Assembly (NCBI GenBank): GCA_964498285.1
Contig: CAZCGN010000001.1
Location: 175,916-239,915, forward strand
DNA: 64,000 nt
DNA from: an uncultured Methanosarcinales archaeon
GTDB taxonomy: Archaea > Nanobdellota > Nanobdellia > Woesearchaeales > GW2011-AR9
Direction of reading: 5' to 3'
Part shown: piece by piece, positions 7,181 to 53,649 of the stretch
How positions within the stretch are numbered: position 1 is the first letter of the stretch
Layout of the letters: each line of letters starts with the position of its first letter
Made by a program: the position numbers and the translations under genes
The notes under the pieces: generated by a model
The model's database searches: none
Told to the model about the DNA's origin: nothing
The model's input: the letters and a program-made list of their open reading frames with translations, nothing else

Positions 7181-7714
7181 TTACGGCCTTCGCCTCAATG
7201 ACTTAATCAAATAATTATCATCTTCATCTTTTTCCATGACAACTTCGCTTTCTTCACCATCAACTTCTACGACTTCTTTTTCTTCTTCCTCAACATTTAA
7301 CCCTTCAGTATTTGCAGTTATCTGGATAAATGCATCTTCCATTGTCGGTTCATCAAGTTCTTGTGGTGCCCACTCTAATGTAAGTCCATCATTTTCCTTT
7401 CGAGGGACTACATGCATAGAAAAGTGAGGAATACTTTGCCCTGCAGCTAACCCATTTTGTACAAATACATTTGTTCCAGTAGCTCCAAGGCCATCAAACA
7501 CAGACATTCCAATTTTGTTTACGATATCTGTCATTTTAACAAGCAATGTATGTGGAATCATCTCTAAGATAGTATGATGTTCTTTTGGGATGATGGTAAT
7601 CTGCCCATCGTTGAACGCCATATACGAGACAAATGCAACCACTTCTTTGTCTTGATAGATAATTTGGGCAGGCTCTCTTCCTGCTACAATATCACAATAG
7701 TCGCATGTTGCCAT
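7181..7714 (-). CDS. HIT-family (histidine triad) protein with acidic C-terminal tail
   Basis: CDYCDIVAG N-terminal motif and histidine triad PHFSMHVVPR. C-terminus EEEEKEVVEVDGEESEVVMEKDEDD. Confidence 0.7.
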   Translation of the reverse strand: MATCDYCDIVAGREPAQIIYQDKEVVAFVSYMAFNDGQITIIPKEHHTILEMIPHTLLVKMTDIVNKIGMSVFDGLGATGTNVFVQNGLAAGQSIPHFSMHVVPRKENDGLTLEWAPQELDEPTMEDAFIQITANTEGLNVEEEEKEVVEVDGEESEVVMEKDEDDNYLIKSLRRRP

Positions 7715-8481
7715 TATTTGAATAAATTTGCAATGTCATCTAAACTTGCATCAACCTCATCTTCGTTTTCATCTTGCTCAGGTTCTTCATCATCTGTTTC
7801 GTCGTCTGATTCGTCAGTATCATCTTCTACTTCATCATCCCCTTCAATATCAGCATCTTCTCCTAACTCGCTAGATTCATCTTCAGGTTCTTCTATTTCT
7901 TCTTCAGGCTCATCTTCCTCTACTTCTGGTTCTTCTTCTACAGCGCGAGGAAGCGTTTGTTGTGTTTCAATTCCCATAAGCCCCTTGAAATGATTCTGAA
8001 CTTTTGTAAGAACTTGTTTTTGAACTTCTAAATTAACACCTTTCTCTTCAAGTTGGAACAAGCCATCAGCATCTTTTCGAGGGATGAGATGTATCATAAA
8101 ATGTGGCGCCCTCTGTCCTGCTGCAAGACCATTTGCTATGAAAATATTCGTACCACCTGCTCGAAGACTTTTGAGCAGAATTTTAGAAAGAACTTTTGTT
8201 GTAACAAATAATTTCTCAAGTGTAGGGTCCGGTATTTGTGGCATAATACTAAAGTGCTCTTTAGGAATGATTAAACAATGCCCCTTAGTTGCGGGTCTAA
8301 TATCTAAGACAACAAGGCACGTTTCATCTTCATAGACTTTTTTAGAAGGAACTTTGCCATCAATTATTTGGCAGAAAATACATTGTTGCCGTTGAAGTTG
8401 CGCAATCTCCTCTGGAGACATATTTTTGAGCTTTTCTTCAAGCTCTTTACGCTGCTCTGGCGTTAGTTGTGAAGGATCCAT
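7714..8481 (-). CDS. HIT-family protein paralogue with long polyacidic tail
   Basis: CIFCQIIDGKVP and APHFMIHLIPRK histidine triad. About 75-aa Glu/Asp-rich C-terminal tail. Start overlaps the stop of the downstream HIT gene by 1 nt. Confidence 0.7.
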   Translation of the reverse strand: MDPSQLTPEQRKELEEKLKNMSPEEIAQLQRQQCIFCQIIDGKVPSKKVYEDETCLVVLDIRPATKGHCLIIPKEHFSIMPQIPDPTLEKLFVTTKVLSKILLKSLRAGGTNIFIANGLAAGQRAPHFMIHLIPRKDADGLFQLEEKGVNLEVQKQVLTKVQNHFKGLMGIETQQTLPRAVEEEPEVEEDEPEEEIEEPEDESSELGEDADIEGDDEVEDDTDESDDETDDEEPEQDENEDEVDASLDDIANLFK

Positions 8482-9227: not shown

Positions 9228-10055
9228 TCACTCTTCTAAGAATTTTTGCACGTTCTTAAAGTGCATTTTTACAAATTGTTTATACGGCAGCTTCCGCCCC
9301 TTAAGCTCATCAAGTGCCCATTTCACATGAGTAGAGCCCTTAGGTACTGCAAATGTTGCTTGCCTTGAAAGAAAGTTAATTTGTTCAAGAGCAGCGGCTC
9401 GAGCCAAGATTGATGCTGCTGCCACCTCAACAAACTTCTGCTCAGCCTTCGTTTCGCGAATATCACCCACACTACAACCAGGGTACTTATCTACTGCATG
9501 AACGCCTGGTTTAAGGTACTTTGCAGCTTTTTTGTGTAATTTGTTAAGAAGCTGCGTTACACCTTTCTCTTTATTATACTTAATTGGAGGTAGACTTATA
9601 ATTTGACACTCCGCTACTTTTTTTACTTCTTGTGCCATCCGCAGTATCTCTTTATCAGCAAGTGCCTTGCTATCTGCAACGCCAATATCAAGAAGTTTTG
9701 TTCGAATCTCATCATTTGCTTTAACAGCAGCAACTACAAGCCCACCAAACGTATCGCCCTTGAGGGATTCGTCTGAACCAATTACCCATCCACGCTCTTT
9801 TCTAAACGTGATTGGTGTAACTTTTGTTCCTATACCAAAACTATGCAACTGAGCTGAGGTTTTATCAATAGCTCCCGAATCTCCTTGTAGAAGTAGTTTC
9901 CCGGAGTTATAGAGAATCATGAGTACTCGTTTTTTAATTCCCTTAAAGAAACGAGCCTTTTCGTGTACCGTTCGAATTTCAAGTGTTTTGAATTTATGCT
10001 TAGAGCAAAACCGCGCAAGATCTTCTACATCAACCTCTGTAAAGACTACCATCAA
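9228..10055 (-). CDS. RNase HIII-like ribonuclease H (RNase H2 superfamily) with N-terminal extension
   Basis: IGSDESLKGDTFGGLVVAAV matches the RNase HIII catalytic motif GSDEVGKGDYFGPLVVAA rather than the RNase HII DEAGRGP motif. A downstream ADSK motif is present, and the ~80-aa N-terminal domain is consistent with the HIII TBP-like domain. Confidence 0.5.
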   Translation of the reverse strand: MMVVFTEVDVEDLARFCSKHKFKTLEIRTVHEKARFFKGIKKRVLMILYNSGKLLLQGDSGAIDKTSAQLHSFGIGTKVTPITFRKERGWVIGSDESLKGDTFGGLVVAAVKANDEIRTKLLDIGVADSKALADKEILRMAQEVKKVAECQIISLPPIKYNKEKGVTQLLNKLHKKAAKYLKPGVHAVDKYPGCSVGDIRETKAEQKFVEVAAASILARAAALEQINFLSRQATFAVPKGSTHVKWALDELKGRKLPYKQFVKMHFKNVQKFLEE

Positions 10056-10099
10056 GAAGAAACTAGAATTCTAAGGAATTTAAATGTTTTGGGTAAAGA

Positions 10100-10492
10100 C
10101 TAAAGCAATTCTCCTATCGCTGCAACAAATTTTCGAGTGGCATTCATTTGCAAAGGATGACCATATACTGTTGAATCTATATGTGCATCATAACAGGTCC
10201 CTGACATTGGAAGACCATAGCCCACAATTCTTGCTCCAGCATATTTTGCTCGTAACACCCCCCACACATTAAACGTTGTTGGGTTGAGAACTAAAGAAAA
10301 AGGACCCGGAACATCTCGAAGCTGAGCTTCAAGTAGAGGAGTGATTTCATCTATCCTACCACTCTGCGCAGCAAGAACTTGTACCCCAAAACGAGCATCG
10401 CTTGTTGAAAGAACTTGCTCAATTCCTGCAGTAAGAAGCGCTGCTGCAGTATCTCCTTTCTGACGAACAATAAGAACGTTAGGTAATGGCAT
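10100..10492 (-). CDS. Hypothetical protein (GC-richer than neighbours)
   Basis: 130-aa ORF between the two RNase H genes on the same strand. No motif recognised. Confidence 0.3.
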   Translation of the reverse strand: MPLPNVLIVRQKGDTAAALLTAGIEQVLSTSDARFGVQVLAAQSGRIDEITPLLEAQLRDVPGPFSLVLNPTTFNVWGVLRAKYAGARIVGYGLPMSGTCYDAHIDSTVYGHPLQMNATRKFVAAIGELL

Positions 10493-10504
10493 TTCAAAGA
10501 GAAA

Positions 10505-11185
10505 TTATTGATCCTGTTTTAAAAAGTCTCCCATCGTTTTTTGCTTACCTTTCTCAACAGCGTTCTTGTAGCTTTGCCACTCGCACCGAAAGATATGTTT
10601 GAACGTTGCATAATGTTCATTCAAAAAGTTCTGTGTTCGAACATCACTCATATATCCTGAACCAAAATCATGCCCAACTTCTTTTTTGATATGGTCAATT
10701 GCGCGATCACGTATCACTTTTGCAATGATTGATGCTGCAGCAACCACAAAATGGCGCGCATCTGCCTTATGTTCCATAACAACTCTTGTTGAAGAACGAA
10801 CACCATCAGAAAGTCTACTTACAAAATAGTGTTTATAATTTTCAAGATTAATACTTGGACAATCAACAATAACTGTATCAGGATTAAGTTCACTTATCAT
10901 GCGTGCTGAAGTTTCAGCTTCAAGCCAGTTAAGATTCAAATTATTATCGCGCAAAGCATGGTCAATTGCATCTGCCTCAATTACTTCTACTCGAAAATCC
11001 TCAACTATTTCGTGGATCCTATCAAACATCTCTTCACGCGCTTCTCGAGAAAGTAGCTTACTATCTTTCACGCCAAGCCATTCTAACTGTTTATCTTGCT
11101 CTGGTGTTGCAACTAGTGCTACCATTACGAGTGGACCAATGACGCAACCCCGACCAGCTTCATCAATTCCTGCTTTAAGACCCAT
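10505..11185 (-). CDS. rnhB: Ribonuclease HII
   Basis: GIDEAGRGCVIGPLVMVAL catalytic motif and GVKDSKLLS. 226 aa, typical for archaeal RNase HII. Confidence 0.85.
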   Translation of the reverse strand: MGLKAGIDEAGRGCVIGPLVMVALVATPEQDKQLEWLGVKDSKLLSREAREEMFDRIHEIVEDFRVEVIEADAIDHALRDNNLNLNWLEAETSARMISELNPDTVIVDCPSINLENYKHYFVSRLSDGVRSSTRVVMEHKADARHFVVAAASIIAKVIRDRAIDHIKKEVGHDFGSGYMSDVRTQNFLNEHYATFKHIFRCEWQSYKNAVEKGKQKTMGDFLKQDQ

Positions 11186-16105: not shown

Positions 16106-16801
16106 CTAATTCTTATCATACCAGTTACTCATATCTTTTTTACCAGGGCTATTTCCATGATACATAATATCTAAACTTTTAGCAATTGCTTGTGATGCAG
16201 ATGCTGCGGATGCAGCTTCTTTTGTCATAGAATAATCGCCTACATCAGCATCTTCAACCTTCTTTTCAATTGCTGAACTAAGCTGCATGAGGCGCTGTTG
16301 TTGTGTTTGAGAGATGTACCCACTCTCTTTTGCAGTATCATACACTTGAACTATTTCTTGATACAAATTTTGCATTGGAACTTGCGAGAGTTCCATGATA
16401 TACGCCGTTTTAAGTGGATCGAATCCAGGATCTATTGCGCCAGGCGGAATCTCAACATCACGAAGACTTTCTTCTAAATCTTCCTCTTTCTTTGTAGATC
16501 CACGGCGCTCTTCTTGCTCACCCAGCTTCTTATCAATCGCTTTTTTCCAGGTACTTGCATCTTCCCCGCGCTGCGCTTTAACAATGATCTTTCCTTCCTC
16601 ACTTAATGTAGAAGTATCGCGCGTTGCAACCTGAGGGATTGGCACTTTATCTTCCCAAGCTTGTTTATCTTTTATCTCATCTTCAGCTTCATGCATAAGG
16701 GCTTCTGCCTCTTGTATCTCCTTTTCACGCTCTTTTTTGAGTTTCTTCAATCGTGTAAGACGTTCTTCTGCCGTGAGATTTTCTACTTCTTCTTTGACCA
16801 T
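16106..16801 (-). CDS. Hypothetical highly charged protein
   Basis: 231 aa with a K/E-rich N-terminal coiled coil. Co-directional with the next gene. Confidence 0.3.
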   Translation of the reverse strand: MVKEEVENLTAEERLTRLKKLKKEREKEIQEAEALMHEAEDEIKDKQAWEDKVPIPQVATRDTSTLSEEGKIIVKAQRGEDASTWKKAIDKKLGEQEERRGSTKKEEDLEESLRDVEIPPGAIDPGFDPLKTAYIMELSQVPMQNLYQEIVQVYDTAKESGYISQTQQQRLMQLSSAIEKKVEDADVGDYSMTKEAASAASASQAIAKSLDIMYHGNSPGKKDMSNWYDKN

Positions 16802-16866
16802 AAATTATAATAGAACACAGAACTATAAAAACCTTGAGACTATAAAACACATACTAAATCAAATAA

Positions 16867-18384
16867 TTACCACGTAATCATTCGATGAGCCTTTTTGAAC
16901 GTATGATATACCTGGAACGCTACAAACCCATGAAATTTGAGGGCATTTCCTTGCTTTTTTGGTTGGTATGCTTTAGCTGAAGAGGCCGCCGCTGCACCTT
17001 TCTTTTCAGGAGGGAGAAAATCACCAAACATTTTTCTAAATATACTTTGGTTTGTTTTGCTTTTCGGCGTTTTCTTCTCTTCACCTTTATCTTCTGCTGC
17101 AGCTTTTTTTGCTTGATCTAAGTACTTTTTAAGATCTCCACCAAGAGCATCCATCGATTCTTGGATTGAACCAGAAATATCACCAATGAGCGCGAACACT
17201 TCTTTCTCCTTCAGTTTCTTATAACTCATCACTTGTTCATAGTTCCAATCATAAAGACGTATTTCCATGTCCATCTTTCCAACATGAACAGGCCCGCGCT
17301 GATATCCTTCTTGTACAAATTTCATGTGAGGCCTAGTCCTATAATTAAATGTTACAAGAACACATGTTTGTGAACCCGGATTGTACCCCAAAAACTCAAC
17401 ATCCATCATTGCTCCTTCAAATGATGACACAAGGTCGGCTGAGTCTTGGTGCTTTCCTTTCATACTCAAACGTTGCGCAGTTTTAAGATATGGTTTAATC
17501 CATGTAATATACATCTGGATAATTTCATAATGCTGGTTAAGATAATTGAGCATGAATTCTTTTCGTGTCTCATGTTCTTGATGTGTTCTCTGTTTCCACA
17601 TGGAAAAATGATTCAAATGTCTTTTAAGCACTCTGAGAACCGCATCGTTAAATCCTTTCAAGTTATCTACATACGTTTCAAGTTCGTTTTCTCGTAGTGG
17701 AGGAGTATCAAAAAATAGGTCTGGTAACGTTACAAACTCTAGCTCTCGGGCCATTCCATAGACTGAAGCTGGAGACTTTCCTCCACCTTGCACAAGATCA
17801 ATGAAAATCCCTTTAAGTGTGATTTCATCTTTCTTTCGTCGCTGTTCAATTGGCTTACTAACTTCAGCCTTAGATTTACGATAGTACGCTAACCTCTCAT
17901 CTAGGATTCGCAGTTCACGAATCATTTGAAAGAGTTCTTTGACCATCTTTCCAATTGTTGCAAGATACTGGCCAACTTTATCTTGCTGTATCCCCAATCG
18001 TTGTTGAGTCACGCCAAAAAACGCTGAATTTTCTGAAGCTGAAAAACTATCTTCTAGCTTATCAACTATTGGGAAAAACATACGAAGCGTGTCAAGAACC
18101 CAAAAATAAGGTTCCTCAATACTCAAGTCTGGTACTTGGTACGAAATTCTGTGTTTAAGAAGAGGTGCTGGAAAATCTACTTCAATAAAACTGTATCGTT
18201 GATGTTCTGCCCATTCTTGATGTACTTTTTTGAGCAGTTCCCTATACCTTTTTGGATCTTTAAGCTGTGCTACTCCATTCTCATCATATTTGTAATATTC
18301 ATAGAATGTATCGGTTGCTTTTCCACCTTTGTACATCCCCTTAACAAATCCATGCTCTGCAAGCAGCCTCTTATAATCTACCAT
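16867..18384 (-). CDS. Hypothetical protein
   Basis: 505 aa with no recognisable motif. Lys/Ala-rich C-terminal tail. Confidence 0.3.
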   Translation of the reverse strand: MVDYKRLLAEHGFVKGMYKGGKATDTFYEYYKYDENGVAQLKDPKRYRELLKKVHQEWAEHQRYSFIEVDFPAPLLKHRISYQVPDLSIEEPYFWVLDTLRMFFPIVDKLEDSFSASENSAFFGVTQQRLGIQQDKVGQYLATIGKMVKELFQMIRELRILDERLAYYRKSKAEVSKPIEQRRKKDEITLKGIFIDLVQGGGKSPASVYGMARELEFVTLPDLFFDTPPLRENELETYVDNLKGFNDAVLRVLKRHLNHFSMWKQRTHQEHETRKEFMLNYLNQHYEIIQMYITWIKPYLKTAQRLSMKGKHQDSADLVSSFEGAMMDVEFLGYNPGSQTCVLVTFNYRTRPHMKFVQEGYQRGPVHVGKMDMEIRLYDWNYEQVMSYKKLKEKEVFALIGDISGSIQESMDALGGDLKKYLDQAKKAAAEDKGEEKKTPKSKTNQSIFRKMFGDFLPPEKKGAAAASSAKAYQPKKQGNALKFHGFVAFQVYHTFKKAHRMITW

Positions 18385-18437
18385 TCTCTTATCTCTACTT
18401 TAGAAATAGTCTTTCTATCCTTAATTAAGTTTTCTCT

Positions 18438-19073
18438 TTATAGTTTTGGTGTGCAAGTAAAAAACCATAGATCAGACTCATCACATCGTGTTACATCAAA
18501 TCCTGAATTTTTAAATATCTTACACCACTCTTTTTGGGTATGGTTACTCTTCTCATGCCGTTTATGCCGAGAATTTACACCCTTTGCACTTAAGATTGCA
18601 ACAAATGTTCCTCTCTCTTGTAGGATTCTCTTCACTTCAGTTAGAAAAGAGGGGATTTTTTCAAGATAATTGAGAAGAAATACAGCAGTAATTGAAGTAA
18701 ATTCATTTTCTTTGAAAGGAAGATGTTTTTCAAGATCACCAACTACTTTTTCCATTGCATTCGCATTCTTATCTAGCATTTTTGCTGAACAATCAAACGC
18801 GATAGATGGGACATAACTATGCGCTCCTGCACCAAGGTCAAGGTTTGTTCCTTTTGGAAGCATTTCTCTTAGTTTTTCAGTGATACATCTTCGTTTAGCT
18901 TCATCAATTTTTGTATGCCATAAATAACTCTCGGCACTCCAAAACGCTTCTTTTTTTTCCGGCAAGCCTTCTGCCCATGGAATCTTCCTCGAAAGTTGCA
19001 TGAGTGAATCTTCTACTTTTTCTCCAAGACTTTGCTTGATTAATAATTTGAAAAATTCTGCTTCTGTATCCAT
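18438..19073 (-). CDS. Class I SAM-dependent methyltransferase
   Basis: Motif I TNLDLGAGAHSY and Rossmann-like secondary pattern. Confidence 0.6.
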   Translation of the reverse strand: MDTEAEFFKLLIKQSLGEKVEDSLMQLSRKIPWAEGLPEKKEAFWSAESYLWHTKIDEAKRRCITEKLREMLPKGTNLDLGAGAHSYVPSIAFDCSAKMLDKNANAMEKVVGDLEKHLPFKENEFTSITAVFLLNYLEKIPSFLTEVKRILQERGTFVAILSAKGVNSRHKRHEKSNHTQKEWCKIFKNSGFDVTRCDESDLWFFTCTPKL

Positions 19074-19131
19074 GTATAGTACTAAAAGGGCAAAAAGTTA
19101 TAAAAGGCTTTAGATGATTCTCTTTCTATGT

Positions 19132-19343
19132 GGGCTTGTGGTCTAGTGGCTACATATCAATAGAGATATGCCATAAATGATACCGCCTCGACATACACGA
19201 TCGTGTTCGATATGGCGGGGATCCCCGGTTCGAGCGCAATTCAATCAAAAACGCCGGGCGTTTTTGGTGTGCCAGAAAAATCTTTGTTTTTCTGAGCACT
19301 TTCGCCAACTGGCTGATTGAATCCGAAAATCCGGGCAGGCCCA
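19132..19343 (+). tRNA. Putative intron-containing tRNA gene (T-loop intron ~95 nt plus additional 5' intron(s)); anticodon not resolved
   Basis: 5' end GGGCTTG-TG-GTCT-AGTGGCTA is a canonical acceptor, D-stem and D-loop start. The 3' end CAGGCCC-A (19336-19343) pairs with GGGCTTG (one G:U). T-stem CCCGG (19224-28) pairs CCGGG (19331-35). Joining TTCGA (19229-33) to AT (19329-30) gives a canonical TTCGAAT loop, implying an intron at 19234-19328 closed by the 9-bp helix ATTCAATCA / TGATTGAAT. Anticodon stem candidate CCGCC (19183-87) / GGCGG (19214-18) leaves a 5-nt variable loop GGATC. The D-arm 3' strand and the anticodon loop need further intron(s). Confidence 0.35.
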
Positions 19344-19357
19344 TTATATTCACAAAG

Positions 19358-19828
19358 ATGGAACAACAAGAACAGCCAATTTACAAACTTGCAAAGAAAA
19401 AATCGCGCATGCTTATCCCTCACTTTTTCATGCTCGTGATTCTCTCCCTAATCTTTTATTTGGGAATACTTCTTAACCTCTCACTACTCAAATTGAAAGG
19501 AAGTACAGAAAGCACTGCAAAAACATATGTTCTTCTCATAATCTTTCTTCTTATCTTCTTAGGAATGATTCTTAAGTTTGCTAAATCAAAACAAACATAC
19601 AAGTTTTTCAGGCACAAAATCCTAATAGGGGGAAAAAAGAGTGTTTTGTTTATCAACATAAGTGAACTTGCAAAAAAGCGAGGAGTGTTGGATAAAATGT
19701 TTGGTACATATACCCTTGTTTTAACACACGATGCTAAGCTCGAGTTTATTCCACTATCGATTGACATGGAAAGTTATGTGAACCAGCTTGTCCAGTACAA
19801 TAAGGACCAAGCAACACAAGTGTATTGA
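19358..19828 (+). CDS. Small membrane protein (two TM helices followed by a PH-like soluble domain, DUF304-like)
   Basis: Two hydrophobic helices near the N-terminus, then a ~90-aa soluble domain. Confidence 0.3.
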   Translation: MEQQEQPIYKLAKKKSRMLIPHFFMLVILSLIFYLGILLNLSLLKLKGSTESTAKTYVLLIIFLLIFLGMILKFAKSKQTYKFFRHKILIGGKKSVLFINISELAKKRGVLDKMFGTYTLVLTHDAKLEFIPLSIDMESYVNQLVQYNKDQATQVY

Positions 19829-19831
19829 AAG

Positions 19832-21364
19832 TCACATCCCAATTCCGACAAACTCTGTTTCAACAGAATTAGATGGTCTTTCTTCCTTCCTTTTCTTCAC
19901 AAACTCAGAAAATAATGGAATCTTTAATGGCACTGCAAACCGAGTAAAGGTGGAGGTAAGCAAAGCTTCACCCTTATCCAAACTTGCAATGGTTCTGCTA
20001 TCAGAACTTAGATCCTGCGCAGCACTCTCGATAACTGCTGTGCGTTCTGAGGACATTTCCATCCCCAAAATGATTTTTGTGTTCATATTTGCTAGGATAT
20101 TTTTTGGAATCTCGGAAGGAAGTTGCGTGATTGCAACTAATCCTATTTGAAATTTACGTCCTTCACGTGCGATCGTATCAAACACATTTGTTCCTTGCTC
20201 TAACACTTTTTTACCCAAAACACGTGGCGCTTCTTCAAGAACAATACTGATAACCGGTTTCTGAGACAAAACTCCTTGCTTTTTATAATAACGATACTTC
20301 TTGAGTGCTTCGGTTGCAATCATAGAACCAATCATCACTTCCAAGGCTCCCGCAAAATAGCTAGTATCAACAATAACAGTTTTTCCTTGTTCTAATTCAC
20401 GACAAATGTCATTAATTGTGTTCTCTCCGGCATGCATATCAAATATTCCTTGTGTTGTAAGCTGTCCATTTTGCAACTCAAGTTGCAACAACGAAATTAA
20501 TTTCCGTTTGACAACAGCGATCGTATCTTCATGGAACCTGATCCCTTCAATTCTTCGTTCTGCAATAAGTGATTCAATCCAGTTTGTTCCAAAGATTTTG
20601 TGGTACACATGTAAACACTGGCGCTGCGGATCTGAAAGTGTAATTGCACCAGAAAAATATTCTGGTTTGAGCGTATGCAAATGAATTTTGAGTGTTCGTG
20701 CGCCTGGTGGAGGTGACGCTGGTGTGTAATACACAACATTGCTCCTTGAAGGATGGTCTTTAAGGCCTAAACCAGTTCTTCCGTAATACTCATCATGTGG
20801 GTCTAAAACAAGCATACCCACATATTCTTTGTCCAAAGAATCCCACAAAATTGTTGACATTAAATTTGATTTTCCTTTCCCAGTTGATGCTGGAATAAGA
20901 ACATGATGAGAAAATACTTCTCGTCCAGGTAGATATATGTCAAAGTCAAGTACTTGTGAGCCTGACCGAAGATTCCCTGTATACAACGGATTCTGAGGTG
21001 TTGTAATAAATGAACAGTCTTCTTTTGTAAGAGCCCTAACATGTGAAAAAAAGGTTGGCAACTTTTTACACGTTGCACTTTTTTTACCCAACGTAAGGAT
21101 TGGTTTTAAGTATGCTAAAGAATAATTACGTAATTTCTGATCAACTATTGAAAAAGAGGTATCTTCTTCTAAATTTAGGCCAGAGACCATTTCAAGATTT
21201 TGCTGACTTATTTGCGATGCGTACACCAAATCAAATACTTGTAGAAGAACTTTTTGTTCTTGCTCTTCGATCACAAGAAGTTCACCCAACTCAACGTATT
21301 CATCTGATTTCACACGCACTATAATTTTGCTAAAATCTCCACCAATAACCTGCCCCTTAATCAT
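19832..21364 (-). CDS. HerA/DUF87-family P-loop ATPase
   Basis: HAS-barrel-like N-terminus ([15 protein letters not shown]), Walker [23 protein letters not shown] (the DUF87 DPHGEY motif), [15 protein letters not shown] and NTKIILGM. No NurA-like gene adjacent. Confidence 0.7.
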
Positions 21365-21514
21365 AGGATTTGAGGTAGGTTAAGACCTTTTAAGCATTGT
21401 GGGGCCTTGGTAAACAAACGAGAAATCTAGGGATTTCTGCTCATTCTTTGCTAGTAAAGATAGCAAAGAATAAAACAACAATATTTATAAAGAGATGAGC
21501 AAAATAAGACTATT

Positions 21515-21769
21515 ATGGAAGCAATTGTAATGCACTTTAGGCAAGGACGCCACCATGTAAACCCACACCAGATGATTCTAAAAGTAGCTGATACTGCTGA
21601 GGCTGCTCAAAAGGTTGTTGGAAAAAAAGTTGTATGGAAGTCTCCTTCCGGAAAAGAGATTACAGGAGAGATTTCAGCTCTCCACGGCAGGAAAGGTAAT
21701 GTTCGAGCAATATTTGCAGAGAAAGGACTTCCGGGCCAAGCATTAGGTCAGAAAGTAAAAATTCTATAA
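21515..21769 (+). CDS. rpl35ae: Ribosomal protein L35Ae (eL33)
   Basis: 84 aa. HFRQGRHHVNPHQMILKV...GKKVVWKSPSGKEITGEISALHGRKGNVRAIFAEKGLPGQALG matches the archaeal L35Ae pattern. Confidence 0.7.
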   Translation: MEAIVMHFRQGRHHVNPHQMILKVADTAEAAQKVVGKKVVWKSPSGKEITGEISALHGRKGNVRAIFAEKGLPGQALGQKVKIL

Positions 21770-22435
21770 TTATTCAGAACTTCCAGCACCGCTTTTAATA
21801 AACTTCTCAATTTTTGTTGTAAGAGCACCGCAATTGCCAGTAATTTCAGTAATGATTGGCTTAAGTTCAGCAACACGTGCTTCCCACGCATCTGGTGCCA
21901 TATCAGCAGCAGGTAATTTTCCTTTAAGTTCGAGTGTTTTTTCTAAGATCACTTGAGTATGAGTATACAAATCTGCCATTAAATCTCTTTCAGCACCCTT
22001 CACATGTAAATGAGCAAGATGAACTCTTCTATACGCACGCTTCAAATCAGCTTCCATCTTCTCAACCTTCTTTTTTGCCTCTTCAAGCGGCTCTTCCCCC
22101 TTCTCTCGAAGCAAAATTTCGTACACTTCATCAGCACCATGGTGAACATAGAGTAACCATCCACGCACTCTGTCAATCAAATTGTGGCGTTTATGGTGTG
22201 CTGCTTGCTTTTCTGCTTTTTCTTGACCTTCTTTTACTTTGCCTGTCACAAACTCGCGAAGTTCTTTGTTTTTTTCTTCATCTTCTGGCGTTTCCTTCCC
22301 AAACACCATAAAGAATTTCACAATATACCATACAATCATAATAGCTACAAGAAACAGAGCATAGTCAATAAAATCAAGAACACTTCTTCCAACAATAGTG
22401 CTAATGACAACCATTCTAGACAACTCCCCCGCCAA
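21770..22435 (-). CDS. N-terminally membrane-anchored coiled-coil protein
   Basis: One TM helix then a K/E-rich coiled coil. Overlaps the upstream gene by 20 nt, suggesting an operon. Confidence 0.35.
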   Translation of the reverse strand: MAGELSRMVVISTIVGRSVLDFIDYALFLVAIMIVWYIVKFFMVFGKETPEDEEKNKELREFVTGKVKEGQEKAEKQAAHHKRHNLIDRVRGWLLYVHHGADEVYEILLREKGEEPLEEAKKKVEKMEADLKRAYRRVHLAHLHVKGAERDLMADLYTHTQVILEKTLELKGKLPAADMAPDAWEARVAELKPIITEITGNCGALTTKIEKFIKSGAGSSE

Positions 22436-22997
22436 GAACTGCTACATGGTATCGCATAACAGTGAGCACCCAGAAAAGTACAAGAACAATAACAAGCTTA
22501 AGAGAAACTGACATAATGTCTTCTGGTTTAGATTTTCCATCTTTATCTTTTCCAGGCAACTGGAAGAGTAAAAGGGCAACTGCAACAACTGGTCCACCAA
22601 CAAGAAGTAACCCGAATATTGTTGCCATGCCAGCACCTGTTGCGAGCAAGACTTGGTTTGGCAAATATACAGCAGAGATTGTTGCAATGATTGCTGCAAT
22701 AATCATTCCTTGACTTTTTGACAAGAATCCTAAAGGTCCAGACTTCTTTTTGCTATTAAACCCAAACGAACTTGTAACTGCAAAAAGTAATGTGAAGATC
22801 AGTGTCCAAATCAGAACTCGTGTGAATCCTACAATTACACTTCCGTGCGAAAACCCAAGAAAACTGAGGTTTCCCATTCCTACAATAGTATCAAACACAC
22901 TTGCCATGGTTGATGAAAGATCAGCAAATGCAAGAGGCATGCTTAGAAATGTAAGCAAAGCAAACAGTGTACTTTTAAGAATACCACCTCTTTTCAT
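22416..22997 (-). CDS. Membrane module protein, paralogue family A
   Basis: Signal/TM then FTRVLIWTLIFTLLF and IIAAIIATISAVYLPNQVLLATGAGMATIFGLLLV. Homologous to the N-terminal regions of 23843-25279 and 32308-34377. Confidence 0.4.
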   Translation of the reverse strand: MKRGGILKSTLFALLTFLSMPLAFADLSSTMASVFDTIVGMGNLSFLGFSHGSVIVGFTRVLIWTLIFTLLFAVTSSFGFNSKKKSGPLGFLSKSQGMIIAAIIATISAVYLPNQVLLATGAGMATIFGLLLVGGPVVAVALLLFQLPGKDKDGKSKPEDIMSVSLKLVIVLVLFWVLTVMRYHVAVLGGGVV

Positions 22998-23050
22998 ACA
23001 CCAAAGTAAGAAGTTATCGTTTATAAGGTTTCTGGGTGGAGTTAGAAATT

Positions 23051-23785
23051 CTAAAGAAGTTTTTGAATGCCTGCACAGATTGCTTGTAAATCCCCAACTA
23101 CAGTGTGCTGTTTTCCTAATAGTTCATCTGCAATACCAGAAAGCTGGTCTAAAGAATTTACATTGCTAAGAAGACCTCGAGCATGTTCCAAATTAAACTC
23201 CTTCTTATCTCCAGTATGTGACTCTTCTAACAAAAGCCCTTCGGAAAGTGCTTGATGATATTCATTAAACACAGAGTATAACCCTCTTAATTCATCTTTC
23301 GTTTCTTTGTGAAGCCGAGCTATTTCATTTTCAAGCGCCTTAATTTCAGTCATTTGGGTCTTTGTATCAGGATGTATTGAAAGCCCTTTAATGACTCCTT
23401 TAATAAACCGCTGATGCCGGAACCTTGTCCGTTCAGCTTCTTCCCATAAATTAAGGATTCTTTCTACATCATCCATCATTTCACTTACGTGGCTCTTAAC
23501 TGATAGAAAATCTCCTCGTTTTGGTGGTGGTGAACGACTAGGTTCTAAGAGTCGTTGTATTAGGCTTATTGTTGCATGAACATCATGCCTCAAGGTCTTG
23601 ATTTCCTTGAATTCAGCATTCTCAGGTATAAACTCTCTTAATGCTGATTTAAAGGCCCTTTTTGATGGAACTCGCACGTCAATAAATCTCCTTCTATGCT
23701 GCTTAGTAAACGGGATCCATCCCTTATACCATGAAAGATTAGAATTTCTTGCAGGTTTTTGTTTAAGTACTCGCTTAAGGCCCAT
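23051..23785 (-). CDS. Soluble protein homologous to the C-terminal domain of 23843-25279
   Basis: Shares IPFTK[QE]HR[RT]RF and the following helical region (KHQRF/KHQRK ... KALENEIARLHKE / LEVLEGQILSYHK). Confidence 0.4.
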   Translation of the reverse strand: MGLKRVLKQKPARNSNLSWYKGWIPFTKQHRRRFIDVRVPSKRAFKSALREFIPENAEFKEIKTLRHDVHATISLIQRLLEPSRSPPPKRGDFLSVKSHVSEMMDDVERILNLWEEAERTRFRHQRFIKGVIKGLSIHPDTKTQMTEIKALENEIARLHKETKDELRGLYSVFNEYHQALSEGLLLEESHTGDKKEFNLEHARGLLSNVNSLDQLSGIADELLGKQHTVVGDLQAICAGIQKLL

Positions 23786-23842
23786 GCACTAAAGTAATGA
23801 ATCTGCATTTATAAGTTTTATGCCAGGTCAAACTGGAGAAGA

Positions 23843-25279
23843 TTAGCGAAGAAGTGGTTTAACTCGAGAAGCGACATCCCTTAAGTCAGTTATTACCTTT
23901 TCTTGGTGGTCAATCATTGCCTCAACAAGGTCAAGGGCAGGATCAAAATCGTGCGCACCCACTGTTCCTTTTGCGTGATCGGGATCAAATGGTTCTACTT
24001 GCGCGTTATCAAGTGCATGGGCCAAAGCTATAAGTTCACTTGCAAGTGCTTGTGCAGAAACATAAGTATCCTTATGATATGATAAAATTTGGCCCTCAAG
24101 CACTTCAAGATCTCGAGCTTGTGTTTGATGGTCTGAATACTTCCGTAGGTTTTTAATCACTTTTCGAATTTTACGTTGATGTTTAAACGTGGTTCGTTTT
24201 ACCTTTCGGTACTTTTGCATAACAGTATTTAGCTGATCTTCAGCATCAGTTAATTCTATTCGCAACTTTTTGAGTTGGCTTAATACATTATGTTCAGGAG
24301 TAGTATCTGGGAGAGCTTCAAAATTATCTTTTGTATGCTCAAGAAGAGCCATCTTTGCCCCAAGCTCTTTCATTTCACGTAGCTCCGCTGTTTCAGGATC
24401 ATACTGTGCCATTGCTGAATCAAATGCATCTCTGGCAGGAAGCATAAACCGTGTTCTATGCTCTTTTGTGAACGGAATTGCTCCTTTTTCCTTAACAGAC
24501 TGAAATGCCTCACCAGCATCCAAACCAGTAACATCAGCAGCCTTACCACCTATTCCACTAATTACGCTCCAAATCAGAAAAATCCATGCAATCACAATTG
24601 CAATGTCTAAAAGACCACTGAGTGGTGCAAAAGCTGCAGCCAAGGGTGACGCTGCAAACAAGCCTCCAGGTGTCCCTGGTGTTATGGAAAAACCACCGAA
24701 AAAAGGAACCATCTTCAAAACCGCAGGTGTTCCTGGCGAAACTAATCCCACTAGATGAGCTTTCATTTGATGCATCATCCAAATAAGAAGCGCCATAAGA
24801 CCAACACGTAAAAGTGGTTGTCCTTTCATTGCCATGTACAAAAAGACACATAAACCGATCGGAAGCCCTAAGAGTACAACTCCTGTGACAAGCGCATAAC
24901 TTGTTGCTGCTGCTATTAAAACGGTAGATGGAATAAAAATCGTTGTCATAGCAGCAATTGCAAACGCAATCACCATTGCAGCGTTATTTCCTGCCTTAAT
25001 AAATTGGGCAGCTCTGTAAAGTAACGTAAAAAGAACAACGAACACAAGGAACCTAACAAGACCTTCCAAAGGATCTGCTGAAGTATTGATCCCAATATGC
25101 CTCATAAAATCAAGCGTGATTATGTGTTGAAAATGATACCAAATAAGTGTACCACTTGTTGGTTTTGGATGAGATGCCAATACTACTTGGGAGAAGAGTG
25201 TGAAAAGTGTTGTTAAAAACCCAAACTGTAAAAATCTTCTAGCTCTCAATAGTACACCTCTATACCCTACGAGAACCAA
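23843..25279 (-). CDS. Fusion of membrane module A with the conserved soluble domain
   Basis: N-terminal ~250 aa hydrophobic and paralogous to 22416-22997 (LVRFLVFVVLFTLLY; AMVIAFAIAAMTTIFIPSTVLIAAATSYALVTGVVLL). C-terminal ~230 aa paralogous to 23051-23785. Confidence 0.45.
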   Translation of the reverse strand: MVLVGYRGVLLRARRFLQFGFLTTLFTLFSQVVLASHPKPTSGTLIWYHFQHIITLDFMRHIGINTSADPLEGLVRFLVFVVLFTLLYRAAQFIKAGNNAAMVIAFAIAAMTTIFIPSTVLIAAATSYALVTGVVLLGLPIGLCVFLYMAMKGQPLLRVGLMALLIWMMHQMKAHLVGLVSPGTPAVLKMVPFFGGFSITPGTPGGLFAASPLAAAFAPLSGLLDIAIVIAWIFLIWSVISGIGGKAADVTGLDAGEAFQSVKEKGAIPFTKEHRTRFMLPARDAFDSAMAQYDPETAELREMKELGAKMALLEHTKDNFEALPDTTPEHNVLSQLKKLRIELTDAEDQLNTVMQKYRKVKRTTFKHQRKIRKVIKNLRKYSDHQTQARDLEVLEGQILSYHKDTYVSAQALASELIALAHALDNAQVEPFDPDHAKGTVGAHDFDPALDLVEAMIDHQEKVITDLRDVASRVKPLLR

Positions 25280-26473: not shown

Positions 26474-27415
26474 ATGAAACATACAACAACTGTAACGCTT
26501 ATACTTCTCATTATTTTTGTTATTGCACAGTATGCTGGACTTGCAGTAACTAATGAGTACATCGACACACAGCAAACACAAGAGCAAGGAGAAGTTGTGT
26601 TCTCAGATCTTCCAATTGGTGAAAGGCCTGATCTAAATGAGAGGACATCGTATATCTCTATTATCTTAGCAATTCTAATAGGAACTGGCATATTGCTACT
26701 GTTAATCAAATTCAAAGCATTTCGAGTATGGAAAGCGTGGTTCTTTTTGGCTGTTGTCATTACAACAATTGTTACGTTAGGTGCATTTTTGAACACTATT
26801 CTTGCAATAGTCCTTGCGTTTCTCCTTGCAGCATGGAAATTATTCAAACCGAATCCAATCATCCATAACCTAACTGAAATTTTTATCTACGCTGGTCTTG
26901 CTGCAATATTTGTACCTGTTCTTAACCTTACTTCCATCCTCATTTTACTTCTCCTTATTTCAATATATGACATGTATGCTGTGTGGAAATCTAAACATAT
27001 GATCAAGCTTGCAAAAGCGCAAGCAAAAGCAAAAGTGTTTGCTGGCCTTATGATCCCATACACACTCAAAGGCTTTAGTAAAAATCAAGAATTGGTTGGC
27101 GCAAAAAAGAAGAAGAAGAAGAAGAAGAAGAAGAAAAGTAACAAAAAAACTACAAAGAAAACAAAGAGAACAAAAAATCTTGGTCGCATGGCAATCCTCG
27201 GTGGTGGTGATATTGGGTTCCCGCTTCTGTTTGCAGGCGTAATACTCAAAACATACGGAATGATGCCTGCATTAATTATTCCGCTTTTTTCTACCGCAGG
27301 CCTTGCTGGCCTTTTCTACTTCGGAAAAAAAGATAGATTTTATCCTGCAATGCCATATCTTTCTGCTGCATGCCTCATTGGATTCGGGTTTGTATGGGTA
27401 ATTGGTCTTTTGTAA
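26474..27415 (+). CDS. Presenilin / signal-peptide-peptidase homologue (A22 intramembrane aspartyl protease)
   Basis: YD motif (ISIYDMYAVW), GxGD motif (ILGGGDIGFPLLF) and PAL motif (MPALIIPLF) in the correct order within TM helices. Poly-Lys cytoplasmic loop between them. Start codon directly abuts the AI-2E stop. Confidence 0.7.
   Translation: MKHTTTVTLILLIIFVIAQYAGLAVTNEYIDTQQTQEQGEVVFSDLPIGERPDLNERTSYISIILAILIGTGILLLLIKFKAFRVWKAWFFLAVVITTIVTLGAFLNTILAIVLAFLLAAWKLFKPNPIIHNLTEIFIYAGLAAIFVPVLNLTSILILLLLISIYDMYAVWKSKHMIKLAKAQAKAKVFAGLMIPYTLKGFSKNQELVGAKKKKKKKKKKKSNKKTTKKTKRTKNLGRMAILGGGDIGFPLLFAGVILKTYGMMPALIIPLFSTAGLAGLFYFGKKDRFYPAMPYLSAACLIGFGFVWVIGLL
27107..27133 (+). repeat. (AAG)9 microsatellite encoding poly-lysine inside the presenilin homologue
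   Basis: Nine perfect in-frame AAG units within a longer purine run (27103-27138). Confidence 0.85.
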
Positions 27416-32147: not shown

Positions 32148-32311
32148 ACGAGAAAGCTGTTAAGATTTTAGGAAGCCTTGTAATGATTATTGTACTTCTT
32201 AATTTGGTACTGTTTGCGTTACGAAAGATTAATCAAACTATTTTTTGGGGCGTTATTATTTTCGGTGCTGTGTTTGCATATGTTGTTCTGCCAAGGTTGA
32301 AGAAGAGTTAA
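32144..32311 (+). CDS. Possible 55-aa two-helix membrane protein overlapping hisS stop
   Basis: ATGA overlap with the hisS stop. Translation MNEKAVKILGSLVMIIVLLNLVLFALRKINQTIFWGVIIFGAVFAYVVLPRLKKS. Below the ORF-track size cut-off. Confidence 0.25.
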   Translation: MNEKAVKILGSLVMIIVLLNLVLFALRKINQTIFWGVIIFGAVFAYVVLPRLKKS

Positions 32312-34377
32312 AGAATTTTGACAGCTTGTTCTCCTCGTTTCGGCCTTCCATCTTTGTCTTGTACTTGAGCATGAACTGCAACCCAACCCTTAGGCAAGTC
32401 TTCCATTTTTAGTTTAAACCCCTTTAAGGTTATCCTTCCTGTACTTTGAGAAGTGCTTCTCTTTTGCTTTGGGTTAGCAAATACTTGTTCCCCATTCGGC
32501 TTAACATAATACGCGATTACTTTGTATGGTGGGTTTGGTGTTTCATACCGGAAAGAAACCCTAACTGTCACAACATCATTAAGATACACATCGGTTTTAT
32601 CGAATCCAACATCTACATTATAATCAATTTTTCGCCCAGGTGGATTAGGGGGGACTGGAGGGTCTGGTGGCGGAACAGGCGGATCCGGTTGAGGCCCGGG
32701 ACCACCGCCACCTTCTGCTTTGGCCTTAGCTTTTGCTTCCAATTGAGCTATATTAGCTAACATAATTTCAATCTTCTCAAGATTCTCAAAGAGATGTATT
32801 GCAGGAGGGTTAATTATGATAGTTCTTTCTTCTTCTCTTTTAAGTTCGCGAACTAAATCCATTAAGAGTTCTAATCGCATCCGTAAGTCTTGAACTGAAA
32901 TTTCTTTTGCGCACTCTAACTTGAGAACGTCCACACTCGTCTTCAGATCTTTTAGTGTCCCATGAGTCGCTGCAAAGCCTTCATTAACATACCTTCTTAT
33001 TTCATCTATTCTTCTCGCTTCCGCCTCTAGTTCTGCTAAGATTTTCCTTGTTTGAGCTTCAGCTTCAGCCCGAAGTGCTCTTGTCTGAGCTTCAATCTCG
33101 GAACTGACATGCGTTTTAACATCCAAACTAGATCTTCTTGCCTCCTCAGCAAGTCTTTGTTCAGCTTCTCGTATTTCCTTTTTGATATCCCTTTCTGCAC
33201 CCTCAAGTCTTTCAATAAGAAGATTAAAACCTTGATCAAACCTTCTTCTAATTCTTCTACGTGTTTCTTCTGCAAGCTCGACAGCTACTCTTCGAACTTC
33301 TCTGATTTCATCTCTGTTAAGAATTATTTCTCTTCTATTCTCCAGGGTTGTTTCATTATTACGGTCAACTTTTGCTTCAATGTCATTAAGCTGTCCTGCA
33401 AGTGGTCCGATCCGACTGGTAAACTCACCTTCTAAATCTTCAAAACGTAGTGCTAATGCTGCGATCGCTTCAAGAATTTCATTTAATTGCTCATCATTTG
33501 GAGGTGGAACTGGTGGATTAGGAGGTACTGGGGGGTTAGGGGGAACAGGAGGATTGGGTGGCACTGGCGGATTAGGAGGTACAGGGGGGTTTGGAGGTAC
33601 TGGTGGAACCGGTGGATTAGGGGGGACAGGTGGATCGGGACCTGGCGGTGGAGGATTGGGCCTTGGTGGTAGAGGGCCTGGAGGATTCGGGTTTTTTCTT
33701 CTATCTTGCCTGAATCTCTCTACTAAGTCTGCAATTGCAGCAGGATCTAACCCATCTGAGCTGCCACCACAAGTGAGCAAACGAATCAAATAGTAAATGA
33801 GTAACAAAGTGGCAATCAAAACCTGCCACTCAATAAAATCATCAACTGCAGAAAAGACAGCGCCAGGATTGACCAACTGCGTTAAATGAAACTGCATGGC
33901 AGCAACGACCCATAAAAAAATCAAAGCGATCAAAGATTTCAAAGCATACATGGGGCAACTTGTCCCCATAGCATTCAATAAAAAGACCAAACCAACCAAA
34001 GGAAGAGCAACAAGAGCTAAACCAACAACAGTTGCAAAACCAGCACCTGCAGCTAGCAACACAGGAACTGGCAAGAAAATTGCAGAAATGGTAGCTATTA
34101 TACCAGTTATGATCAAACGCTGGTTACGAGAAAAAATGTTACTAAGCAAGCGAGATACACCAAACAAAATAGCGAACACTAAAAGCCAAACCAAAAGGCG
34201 AGTGAATGCGTCCAAAGAACTAGTACCAACACCCAAATAACTCAAACCAGCAACATATAAAATCCTACTCCAAACATTCTGTAAAGTCTGAGTCAAAGTG
34301 GCACCATGGACTAGAGGAAAGGAAAGGAGAATACCAACTAGCCACACACCTCTTACAATACGTTTCATGCTAACCAA
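32308..34377 (-). CDS. Large membrane/surface protein: membrane module A + proline-rich repeats + coiled coil + C-terminal beta-rich domain
   Basis: N-terminus paralogous to 22416-22997 (FTRLLVWLLVFAILF; IITGIIATISAIFLPVPVLLAAGAGFATVVGLALV). (PNPPVP)n array, long charged coiled coil, second Pro-rich stretch, then ~110-aa beta-sandwich-like domain. Confidence 0.5.
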   Translation of the reverse strand: MVSMKRIVRGVWLVGILLSFPLVHGATLTQTLQNVWSRILYVAGLSYLGVGTSSLDAFTRLLVWLLVFAILFGVSRLLSNIFSRNQRLIITGIIATISAIFLPVPVLLAAGAGFATVVGLALVALPLVGLVFLLNAMGTSCPMYALKSLIALIFLWVVAAMQFHLTQLVNPGAVFSAVDDFIEWQVLIATLLLIYYLIRLLTCGGSSDGLDPAAIADLVERFRQDRRKNPNPPGPLPPRPNPPPPGPDPPVPPNPPVPPVPPNPPVPPNPPVPPNPPVPPNPPVPPNPPVPPPNDEQLNEILEAIAALALRFEDLEGEFTSRIGPLAGQLNDIEAKVDRNNETTLENRREIILNRDEIREVRRVAVELAEETRRRIRRRFDQGFNLLIERLEGAERDIKKEIREAEQRLAEEARRSSLDVKTHVSSEIEAQTRALRAEAEAQTRKILAELEAEARRIDEIRRYVNEGFAATHGTLKDLKTSVDVLKLECAKEISVQDLRMRLELLMDLVRELKREEERTIIINPPAIHLFENLEKIEIMLANIAQLEAKAKAKAEGGGGPGPQPDPPVPPPDPPVPPNPPGRKIDYNVDVGFDKTDVYLNDVVTVRVSFRYETPNPPYKVIAYYVKPNGEQVFANPKQKRSTSQSTGRITLKGFKLKMEDLPKGWVAVHAQVQDKDGRPKRGEQAVKIL
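33500..33695 (-). repeat. Imperfect 18-nt tandem repeats encoding (PNPPVP)n
   Basis: GGNGGNACNGGNGGATTAGG-type units repeated about 9 times on the + strand. Confidence 0.6.
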
Positions 34378-49276: not shown

Positions 49277-49303
49277 ATTTTTATATGCATTAGTCCTTCT
49301 TGT

Positions 49304-50611: not shown

Positions 50612-50649
50612 TCTAGTATACCTCTTGTCGTGATTATTTTGTGATCATT

Positions 50650-51402: not shown

Positions 51403-51491
51403 TTATAAACCTCTTCTGGTTGCATCAGGAGTATAAATAGATTATGGTCTTAGGGAACAGCAATCATCATGGGGGAAATCTACGAGGAGAA

Positions 51492-53520: not shown

Positions 53521-53649
53521 TTGCTTGAAATTTTCGAAGTATGTAGATATATAAAGATTTAGGAACGGTGAATTTGTTAACTTCCCAGGTAGCTATTTAC
53601 TACTCCCAAAAGCTAAATATTTTTAAACACTCAACTTGCTTAAAACCTC

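Follow-up and report, generated by a model that had tools for sequence, protein, structure and literature searches.

Does a HerA/DUF87 ATPase encoded beside a group of paralogous membrane proteins work with them, or do two unrelated things lie side by side? The question is raised by a stretch of 64,000 nucleotides from an uncultured archaeon (GenBank contig CAZCGN010000001.1, positions 175,916 to 239,915; the whole stretch is referred to below as the window). An original prediction described a cluster of membrane modules with exchanged soluble domains next to a stand-alone ATPase, and likened the combination to archaeal DNA-transfer or secretion machineries such as Ced. We show that genes 21770–25279, together with gene 32308–34377, belong to one uncharacterised family, found so far only in Woesearchaeota/Nanoarchaeota (DPANN). 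The ATPase gene and this array are neighbours within a large block of housekeeping synteny (S19e, L31e, array, L35Ae, HerA, signal-peptide peptidase, metallo-β-lactamase-fold protein and thermosome) and do not form a functional operon. We are confident of the structural and genomic statements made below, and of the independence of HerA. Our overall reading, which joins these statements with the scaffold role proposed below for the membrane family, could as easily prove wrong as right. The genes in question are as follows (TM, transmembrane).

23843–25279, minus strand: paralog B, a complete unit of 478 aa from a TTG start (420 aa in the public gene call), with a signal peptide, a short external segment, the 4-TM module, a fifth TM helix and a four-helix bundle predicted to be cytoplasmic.
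23051–23785, minus strand: an orphan copy of the four-helix-bundle domain of paralog B, 244 aa, with neither signal peptide nor TM helix.
22416–22997, minus strand: the N-terminal half of paralog A as a separate gene, 193 aa, with a signal peptide and the 4-TM module.
21770–22435, minus strand: the C-terminal half of paralog A, with the fifth TM helix and a helical domain; the longest reading frame is 221 aa, and the protein is probably 214 aa from 22414.
32308–34377, minus strand: paralog C, a complete unit with inserts, 689 aa, with a signal peptide, the 4-TM module, a fifth TM helix, an Arg/Lys-rich segment, a (PNPPV)n linker, a long charged coiled coil or helical bundle, a second Pro-rich linker and a C-terminal beta-rich domain of ~110 aa.
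19832–21364, minus strand: a HerA-type ATPase, 510 aa, a neighbour judged to lie outside the membrane-protein unit.
21515–21769, plus strand: ribosomal protein L35Ae (Pfam Ribosomal_L35Ae, 4.4e-13), between the cluster and HerA.

All of the open reading frames (ORFs) named in the original prediction are present where it placed them, and its proposal that three of the proteins share a membrane module was borne out. In BLASTP comparisons, the 193- and 689-aa proteins matched with E=5e-30 (38% identity over ~170 aa), the 689- and 478-aa proteins with E=7e-17 and the 193- and 478-aa proteins with E=8e-8. A hidden Markov model of the module, run over the window, recovered these three copies and none besides. 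As also proposed, the 244-aa protein duplicates the soluble domain of the 478-aa protein; it aligned with residues 265–477 (6e-24), the IPFTK[EQ]HRxRF motif included. A word-index search with the 244-aa protein returned itself, its 478-aa paralog and one other protein (P0009). Using phmmer, the same type of bundle domain was found in family members P0085, P0144, P0136 and P0132, and ORFs like the 244-aa gene are present in loci L023 and L048. P0020 is a close homolog of the 689-aa paralog C (3.6e-99). We considered the IPFTKxHRxRF motif as a signature of the family and rejected it; the motif marks a narrow subgroup (the window paralogs, P0009 and, in part, P0085) and falls within a linker of low confidence.

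Using HMMER, we searched exhaustively through 1.84 billion representatives, each standing for a cluster at 50% identity. There were 406 matches at E≤1e-3, of which 192 reached 1e-10 and 43 reached 1e-30. The family thus comprises at least 406 clusters. In every match the module was N-terminal, either as a stand-alone protein (~170–190 aa) or within proteins of 370–913 aa. The membrane and soluble proteins of the window gave no match above threshold in Pfam or NCBIfam. When 65 family members were searched against Pfam, no family recurred; the best was DUF2070, in four members and with E≥0.023. No sequence relatives of the module family were found in the PDB, and a fold search of the family against BFVD gave nothing at E≤1e-3. 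With PADLOC models, the membrane and soluble proteins had no match below E=1e-3, and only HerA models matched the ATPase. PHROGs gave nothing meaningful for the cluster proteins, no viral copies of the family were found in 2.9 million viral contigs, and a literature search found no description of it. The original prediction had called the family unidentifiable from known motifs and possibly lineage-specific, and we agree. By sequence comparison, the family of paralogous membrane proteins is real and without match to any described family.

The protein encoded at 21770–22435 had been regarded as a separate component, with a gene overlapping that of the module. Neither point was upheld. The overlap is an artefact of taking the longest ORF, which begins with TTG; the public gene call for the same organism gives 214 aa, starting 1 nucleotide past the stop codon of the module gene. 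In addition, the 221-aa protein matched the C-terminal halves of single-gene fusions P0021, P0033 and P0018 (phmmer, 7e-19 to 4e-15), and weakly matched the C-terminal part of the paralog B profile. Therefore, the 193- and 221-aa proteins are one unit split over two genes. The paralog B (478-type) profile also matched the extreme C-termini of longer members, in which proteases and Ig-like repeats are fused to the module. Hence, there is a common layout: signal peptide, four TM helices, fifth TM helix, optional insert and terminal four-helix bundle. The inserts, seen in class C between the fifth TM helix and the terminal bundle, can be Pro-rich linkers, coiled coils, papain proteases or Ig-like repeats; outside the window, class C proteins carry Peptidase_C1 or CarboxypepD_reg/SdrD_B domains. 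Accordingly, the window encodes three units (A split over two adjoining genes, B fused, and C fused with inserts) and one orphan bundle.

The arrangement of these genes is conserved. A scan of one genome per GTDB species identified 21 loci with the module; the scan used two narrow peptide patterns, is biased to close relatives and under-samples the taxonomic spread. All of the informatively labelled loci are from Woesearchaeota or Nanoarchaeota metagenome-assembled genomes (MAGs). The remainder, labelled 'archaeon' or 'uncultured Methanosarcinales' in third-party assemblies, are probably mislabelled, given their identical gene context. At all 21 loci, the gene for the 193-aa module protein (172–206 aa among orthologs, with two more cut by contig ends) is followed directly by the gene for the 221-aa protein, in most cases with a gap of 0–2 nucleotides. 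A second module-bearing gene, resembling that of paralog B, lies upstream at each of the 17 loci where upstream sequence is available; at 10 of them it is fused, and at the other 7 it is split or consists of the module alone. The order B then A is retained in the 21 species-level genomes, and the A and B proteins form separate, reciprocally best-matching orthogroups. Therefore, the duplication is older than these species and both copies have been kept. Arrays reach five module genes, as in L103, where the products are, in order, 250 aa, 182+214 aa, 179+212 aa, 370 aa and a 904-aa protease fusion. Class C is found inside the array in L103, L065 and L100, and elsewhere in the genome in the window and for P0043.

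The array is embedded in housekeeping genes. Upstream and divergent are S3Ae, a metallophosphoesterase, Cbf5, L31e and S19e (the last two confirmed by Pfam). Downstream are L35Ae, HerA, signal-peptide peptidase, the metallo-β-lactamase-fold protein and thermosome or, alternatively, glycosyltransferases. The GC content is 0.37–0.42 and flat over the cluster region, with no anomaly. We considered a mobile element or virus and rejected it given the absence of a GC shift, the absence of viral relatives and the housekeeping flanks. A link to cell division through SepF, the membrane anchor of FtsZ, was likewise rejected; SepF is encoded directly upstream and on the same strand only at L107:9398–9799, and at no other locus nor in the window. 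In the nearest related genome (JGI contig 3300072015, module 56% identical), paralog B is split into genes of 183 and 293 aa. In place of the orphan 244-aa gene of the window (23051–23785), this genome has a DDE transposase, so this spot in the array is prone to rearrangement.

The anatomy of the module was derived from hydropathy and AlphaFold2 models. A first model, from 8 sequences, was too poor to use (predicted local distance difference test, pLDDT, 59.9). The second, built with a 91-sequence alignment, had a pLDDT of 83.9, with values of 88–96 for the TM core and 96–98 for the C-terminal domain. The helices of the 193-aa protein agree with AlphaFold2. After the signal peptide there is an external segment of ~30 residues that is acidic and contains an amphipathic helix. 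TM1 begins with an Arg, the sole invariant residue over 65 aligned members. It is followed by a short positive loop, a tight TM2-LP-TM3 hairpin rich in Gly, Ala, Ser and Thr, and a second charged loop. TM4 carries the motif K...L.W.L..M.YH. The 478- and 689-aa proteins continue with a fifth TM helix and the soluble part; in full units, the four-helix bundle that comes after TM5 is elongated.

A module of this kind could act as a channel, a transporter or a sensor. One example would be a channel for ions or small solutes that the cytoplasmic bundle gates, with the paralogs as alternative subunits. Some oligomeric channels are assembled from multi-paralog subunits with cytoplasmic helical extensions, and the general layout of the module family resembles theirs. 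In addition, conserved polar residues are found in or at the ends of TM helices (the Arg of TM1, and the His and Lys of TM4), and the small-residue hairpin would suit tight helix packing or an oligomeric pore. Conversely, neither sequence nor fold comparison with Pfam, NCBIfam or the PDB yielded a transporter or channel. The conserved polar residues seem to gather at the external membrane interface and not to line a transmembrane path. Fusion to proteases and Ig-like domains is also atypical of channels. Hence, we consider a channel improbable.

We next consider which side of the membrane the soluble domains occupy. All members have Sec or lipobox signal peptides, and these, with the acidic Ser/Thr-rich segment that follows, place the N-terminus outside. 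Lipobox-like signal peptides occur in 35 of 160 members and are followed by Ser/Thr/Gly-rich linkers; in one member there is an 80-residue acidic extension past the signal peptide. Charge statistics for 25 stand-alone modules and 30 full-length B-type proteins fit this orientation. Thus, the net charge is −2.7 for the external N-terminal segment, +1.2 to +2.4 for loop 1, about +1 for loop 3, 0 for the TM4-TM5 loop and +0.9 for the segment after TM5. In class C, the segments past TM5 are Arg/Lys-rich or poly-Lys/Asp. With an external N-terminus and an odd number of TM helices (five), the C-terminus would be inside; taking the TM2-TM3 hairpin as re-entrant leaves the parity unchanged. From hydropathy, charge bias and signal peptide type we infer that the N-terminus is outside and that the soluble domains are cytoplasmic.

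The opposite arrangement would make the module a polytopic anchor for extracellular C-terminal domains, displayed as an adhesin, a protease or an envelope layer for host interaction. Class C is highly variable, as expected of host-facing proteins. Its papain-family proteases (Peptidase_C1), CarboxypepD_reg/SdrD_B repeats, Pro-rich (PNPPV)n spacers and terminal beta domain are usual in secreted or surface proteins, and fit the cytoplasm poorly. Against display stand the helix parity, the positive loops 1 and 3 and the charged segments past TM5. The free-standing 244-aa bundle paralog, moreover, has no signal peptide and no hydrophobic segment, and Lys, Arg and Glu are very abundant in the bundles. 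Taken together, these features make surface display rather unlikely.

The terminal bundle resembles other four-helix bundles, including the four-helix-bundle domain of methyl-accepting chemotaxis proteins, vinculin/talin/alpha-catenin and designed proteins. Identity to the family bundle is only 6–13%. Four-helix bundles arise repeatedly, so the fold match gives no functional information. The chemotaxis domain also differs in position; it lies between two TM helices and outside, whereas the family bundle lies past TM5 and is predicted to be inside. Matches to ClyA-family tripartite alpha-pore-forming toxins (AhlABC, SmhABC, Hbl, Nhe and Mak) were not significant. Such toxins are secreted in soluble form and insert a hydrophobic head, whereas the window family has a constitutive N-terminal 5-TM anchor and no toxin context.

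For the membrane family we favour, tentatively, a role as a scaffold. The 4-TM modules of the different paralogs would associate with one another and so form a hetero-oligomeric platform in the membrane. This platform would present a small conserved face to the outside, and the helical-bundle arms would project into the cytoplasm. Some arms would bear enzymatic or binding domains, so that class C proteins may anchor proteases or binding domains on the cytoplasmic side of the membrane. The assembly would then be a housekeeping envelope or cortex scaffold of small symbiotic archaea, and not a translocation channel. We regard this mechanism as possible but far from established.

The neighbouring ATPase can be placed with more precision. 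It matched Pfam DUF87 with E=2e-20 (74 bits against a cut-off of 23.2 bits). In a phmmer comparison, it was colinear with Sulfolobus solfataricus HerA (PDB 4d2i, 1.1e-19), with residues 120–216 aligned to 114–204 and residues 316–486 to 294–464. The two proteins are of similar length and the Walker A and B motifs are kept; this likeness concerns the ATPase alone. Across 9 HerA orthologs, the Walker A motif and the LEEAPRV sequence (Walker B) are invariant. The HAS-barrel match was weak (Pfam, E=0.018, 15.6 bits, below the 25.2-bit cut-off) and hydropathy gave no TM or hydrophobic segment. The curated NCBIfam equivalog models were not passed (HerA_Thermprot, 87 bits against 800; helicase_HerA, 77 against 970). 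By these scores, the ATPase is a divergent HerA clade, far below the curated cut-offs. The original prediction had named a HerA/DUF87 protein, as found, and no NurA was seen among the ORFs scanned. Its suggestion of a VirB4-like motor is not supported; VirB4/TraC models reached only 1e-6 to 1e-2, and the protein is HerA-type.

The ATPase does not adjoin the cluster, as had been thought. The L35Ae gene lies between, on the opposite strand, tail-to-tail with the 221-aa gene and head-to-head with HerA, and its position and orientation are kept in related genomes. Therefore, HerA cannot be co-transcribed with the cluster. To compare gene neighbourhoods we used two views. Centred on the module, HerA was found within 10 kb, in the downstream flank, at 9 of 14 loci with at least 8 kb of flank, and was missing within 10 kb at the other five (L003, L008, L009, L011 and L017). 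Centred on HerA, a metagenome scan gave 80 loci that fall into two groups by identity. Group A (≥63%) shows the L35Ae-HerA-signal-peptide peptidase-metallo-β-lactamase-thermosome synteny, and module genes are present at 12 of 19 loci with at least 5 kb upstream. Group B (57–61%), a sister lineage, has the module at none of 12 such loci, and neither L35Ae nor the signal-peptide peptidase nearby.

In group B, a ~404-aa protein is encoded directly downstream of HerA, on the same strand, at 18 of 31 loci. This protein is Mre11 (Pyrococcus furiosus Mre11, 1.6e-24; NCBIfam Mre11_Pyroc, 3e-27; Pfam Metallophos). In the Sulfolobales, the Mre11-HerA interaction and herA-mre11-rad50-nurA operons are established (PMC2288612). 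Within the window itself there is a Rad50-like SMC (structural maintenance of chromosomes) ATPase at 97–2316, plus strand, 17.5 kb from HerA (NCBIfam Rad50 models, 4.8e-21). No Mre11 homolog was found in the 64 kb, and Mre11 could lie just upstream of the window start. No repair genes are direct neighbours of the window HerA. Compared with the HerA-NurA/Mre11-Rad50 system, the window ATPase is very divergent and no NurA lies beside it at any locus, although the sister-lineage orthologs are operonic with Mre11. Taken together, these comparisons identify the ATPase as the lineage's putative ortholog of the end-resection helicase HerA, predicted to work with Mre11/Rad50 in double-strand-break repair. 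The assignment is based on orthology and on the Mre11 linkage of group B orthologs. In the Woesearchaeales, HerA is uncoupled from Mre11/Rad50 and sits between L35Ae and the signal-peptide peptidase gene.

Three observations concern these repair genes. First, the Rad50-like ORF aligns from about residue 69 of Rad50, and the N-terminal Walker A segment is not in the listed ORF. Second, in L069–L099 (for example L084:7066–12743) the HerA-Mre11 pair is preceded by unannotated genes of 183 and 229 aa, the latter beginning with a PIN-like DTGPII sequence; we considered the 229-aa gene as NurA and rejected it, as it had no Pfam, NCBIfam or PDB support. A small GTPase and the origin-associated proteins OapB and OapC are also encoded near HerA-Mre11 at these loci, which suggests that the sister-lineage repair genes lie near a replication origin. 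Third, the HerA ortholog of a Woesearchaeota MAG (L002:17655–20522) has an insertion of ~527 aa right after Walker A (GKGKSN); query residues 1–167 align with 1–166 and 165–428 with 693–956. An intein in an essential, conserved ATPase would be expected to look like this.

We can now return to the DNA-transfer machine. In that model, the module would be a CedA- or VirB6-like channel, the small proteins would be accessory, and the ATPase would be a motor acting on the cytoplasmic bundles of a Ced/Ted-like or type-IV-like apparatus. Ced and Ted are DNA-import systems of Crenarchaeota (PMC11823120, PMC9905601). CedA is a VirB6-like protein with 6–7 TM helices, CedA1 and CedA2 are two-TM, VirB2-related pilins without a signal peptide, CedB is VirB4/HerA-like and membrane-bound, and CedD is VirD4-like (PMC11823120). 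The likeness to the window is superficial only: in both, an ATPase of the HerA-FtsK superfamily is found close to polytopic and small membrane proteins. The proximity of HerA at the loci counted above fits the model, the soluble domains are predicted to be cytoplasmic and so could face the ATPase, and there is no NurA beside HerA. The ATPase also has a weak match to the NCBIfam CedD model (1e-16). However, that match scored 60.8 bits where the CedD model demands 600, and HerA models ranked above it. The window ATPase is neither VirB4- nor VirD4-like and has no membrane anchor, and the module has a signal peptide and 4 (5) TM helices instead of the 6–7 of CedA.

Other components of such a machine are missing. 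There is no ORF for a two-TM VirB2-like pilin in or beside the cluster; the sole small membrane ORF nearby (19358–19828, 156 aa, opposite strand) had no pilin-family match. Neither the module nor the whole-protein model matched type IV secretion or Ced components by sequence profile or fold. The window genes are not co-oriented as a unit, and the linkage of HerA to the array is no closer than that of L35Ae, the signal-peptide peptidase, the metallo-β-lactamase-fold protein or thermosome. HerA orthologs are 66–71% identical where the membrane modules are only 39–53% identical, which is unlike the pattern expected of co-evolving partners. Thus, none of the defining features of Ced is found, and we judge a DNA-transfer or secretion machine to be highly improbable. 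The original prediction had itself named two findings that would speak against it. One, linkage of the ATPase to repair genes, is now seen for the sister-lineage orthologs; the other, a match of the module to a known transporter family, is not.

Several points also weigh against our own reading of unrelated neighbours. HerA lies beside the array in ~60% of Woesearchaeal loci. Furthermore, in the lineage of the window, HerA stayed although the signal-peptide peptidase-metallo-β-lactamase-thermosome block moved to the other side. Such frequent adjacency, kept through rearrangement, makes some functional tie of HerA to the array possible. The failure to find NurA leaves the repair role leaning on orthology and Mre11 linkage. 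With respect to the scaffold, the mechanism has no homology to any characterised protein behind it, and hetero-oligomerisation was deduced solely from the fact that distinct paralogs have been kept together in an array of fixed order. The extracellular character of the class C domains, discussed above, adds to this.

A more ambitious alternative can also be proposed. The array might be the core of a Woesearchaeota-specific envelope apparatus, a hetero-oligomeric transmembrane linker whose external face contacts the host or the cell's own surface layer. Proteases and binding domains would be attached to its bundle arms, or else the arms would provide a docking site for the neighbouring HerA hexamer, acting as an FtsK-like, membrane-bound DNA pump. 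We consider this a long shot. If true, DPANN archaea would possess a machine, not recognised before, for handling DNA or for the interaction of symbiont and host.

Woesearchaeota and other DPANN archaea are very small symbionts, most of them uncultured. To our knowledge, next to nothing has been described in molecular terms of their cell envelope or of the machinery with which they contact hosts. The membrane family is a concrete target for Woesearchaeal envelope biology; it is lineage-restricted, forms an ordered paralog array among ribosomal-protein genes, lacks curated annotation across its clusters and includes one class with proteases and Ig-like domains. A second lesson concerns annotation. 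A DUF87/HerA protein beside membrane proteins should not be taken for a secretion or DNA-transfer ATPase before ortholog loci have been checked. In the present case, those loci point to a repair HerA that is no longer coupled to Mre11 in one of the lineages.

The remainder of the window is archaeal in content, with genes for thermosome, L35Ae, a family-B DNA polymerase, histidyl-tRNA synthetase, a presenilin-type signal-peptide peptidase and the Rad50-like protein. The signal-peptide peptidase (26474–27415) has a run of twelve lysines (KKKKKKKKKKKK) in a cytoplasmic loop. Next to HerA, at 16106–19828, are genes for proteins of 505 aa (16867–18384), 231 aa (16106–16801) and 156 aa (19358–19828, with two TM helices); all are conserved and have no Pfam or NCBIfam match. 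In the sub-lineage of the window, these three genes travel with HerA and a methyltransferase, and their order is kept in a JGI 294-kb contig and in L024, and partly in L046. Two duplicated gene pairs are found at 7181–8481 and 9228–11185. The first encodes adjoining HIT-family hydrolases (177 and 255 aa) and the second RNase HII (275 and 226 aa), with a 130-aa ORF between. Finally, 46469–56068 contains a Dlt-like gene set in this DPANN archaeon. It includes a 935-aa fusion of a 2-hydroxyacid dehydrogenase, a PP-binding carrier and an AMP-binding adenylation domain, together with an aminotransferase, a short-chain dehydrogenase/reductase, a methyltransferase, a DltD-like GDSL/SGNH hydrolase and a DltB-like MBOAT protein. 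The set suggests carrier-protein-dependent acylation or alanylation of an envelope polymer.

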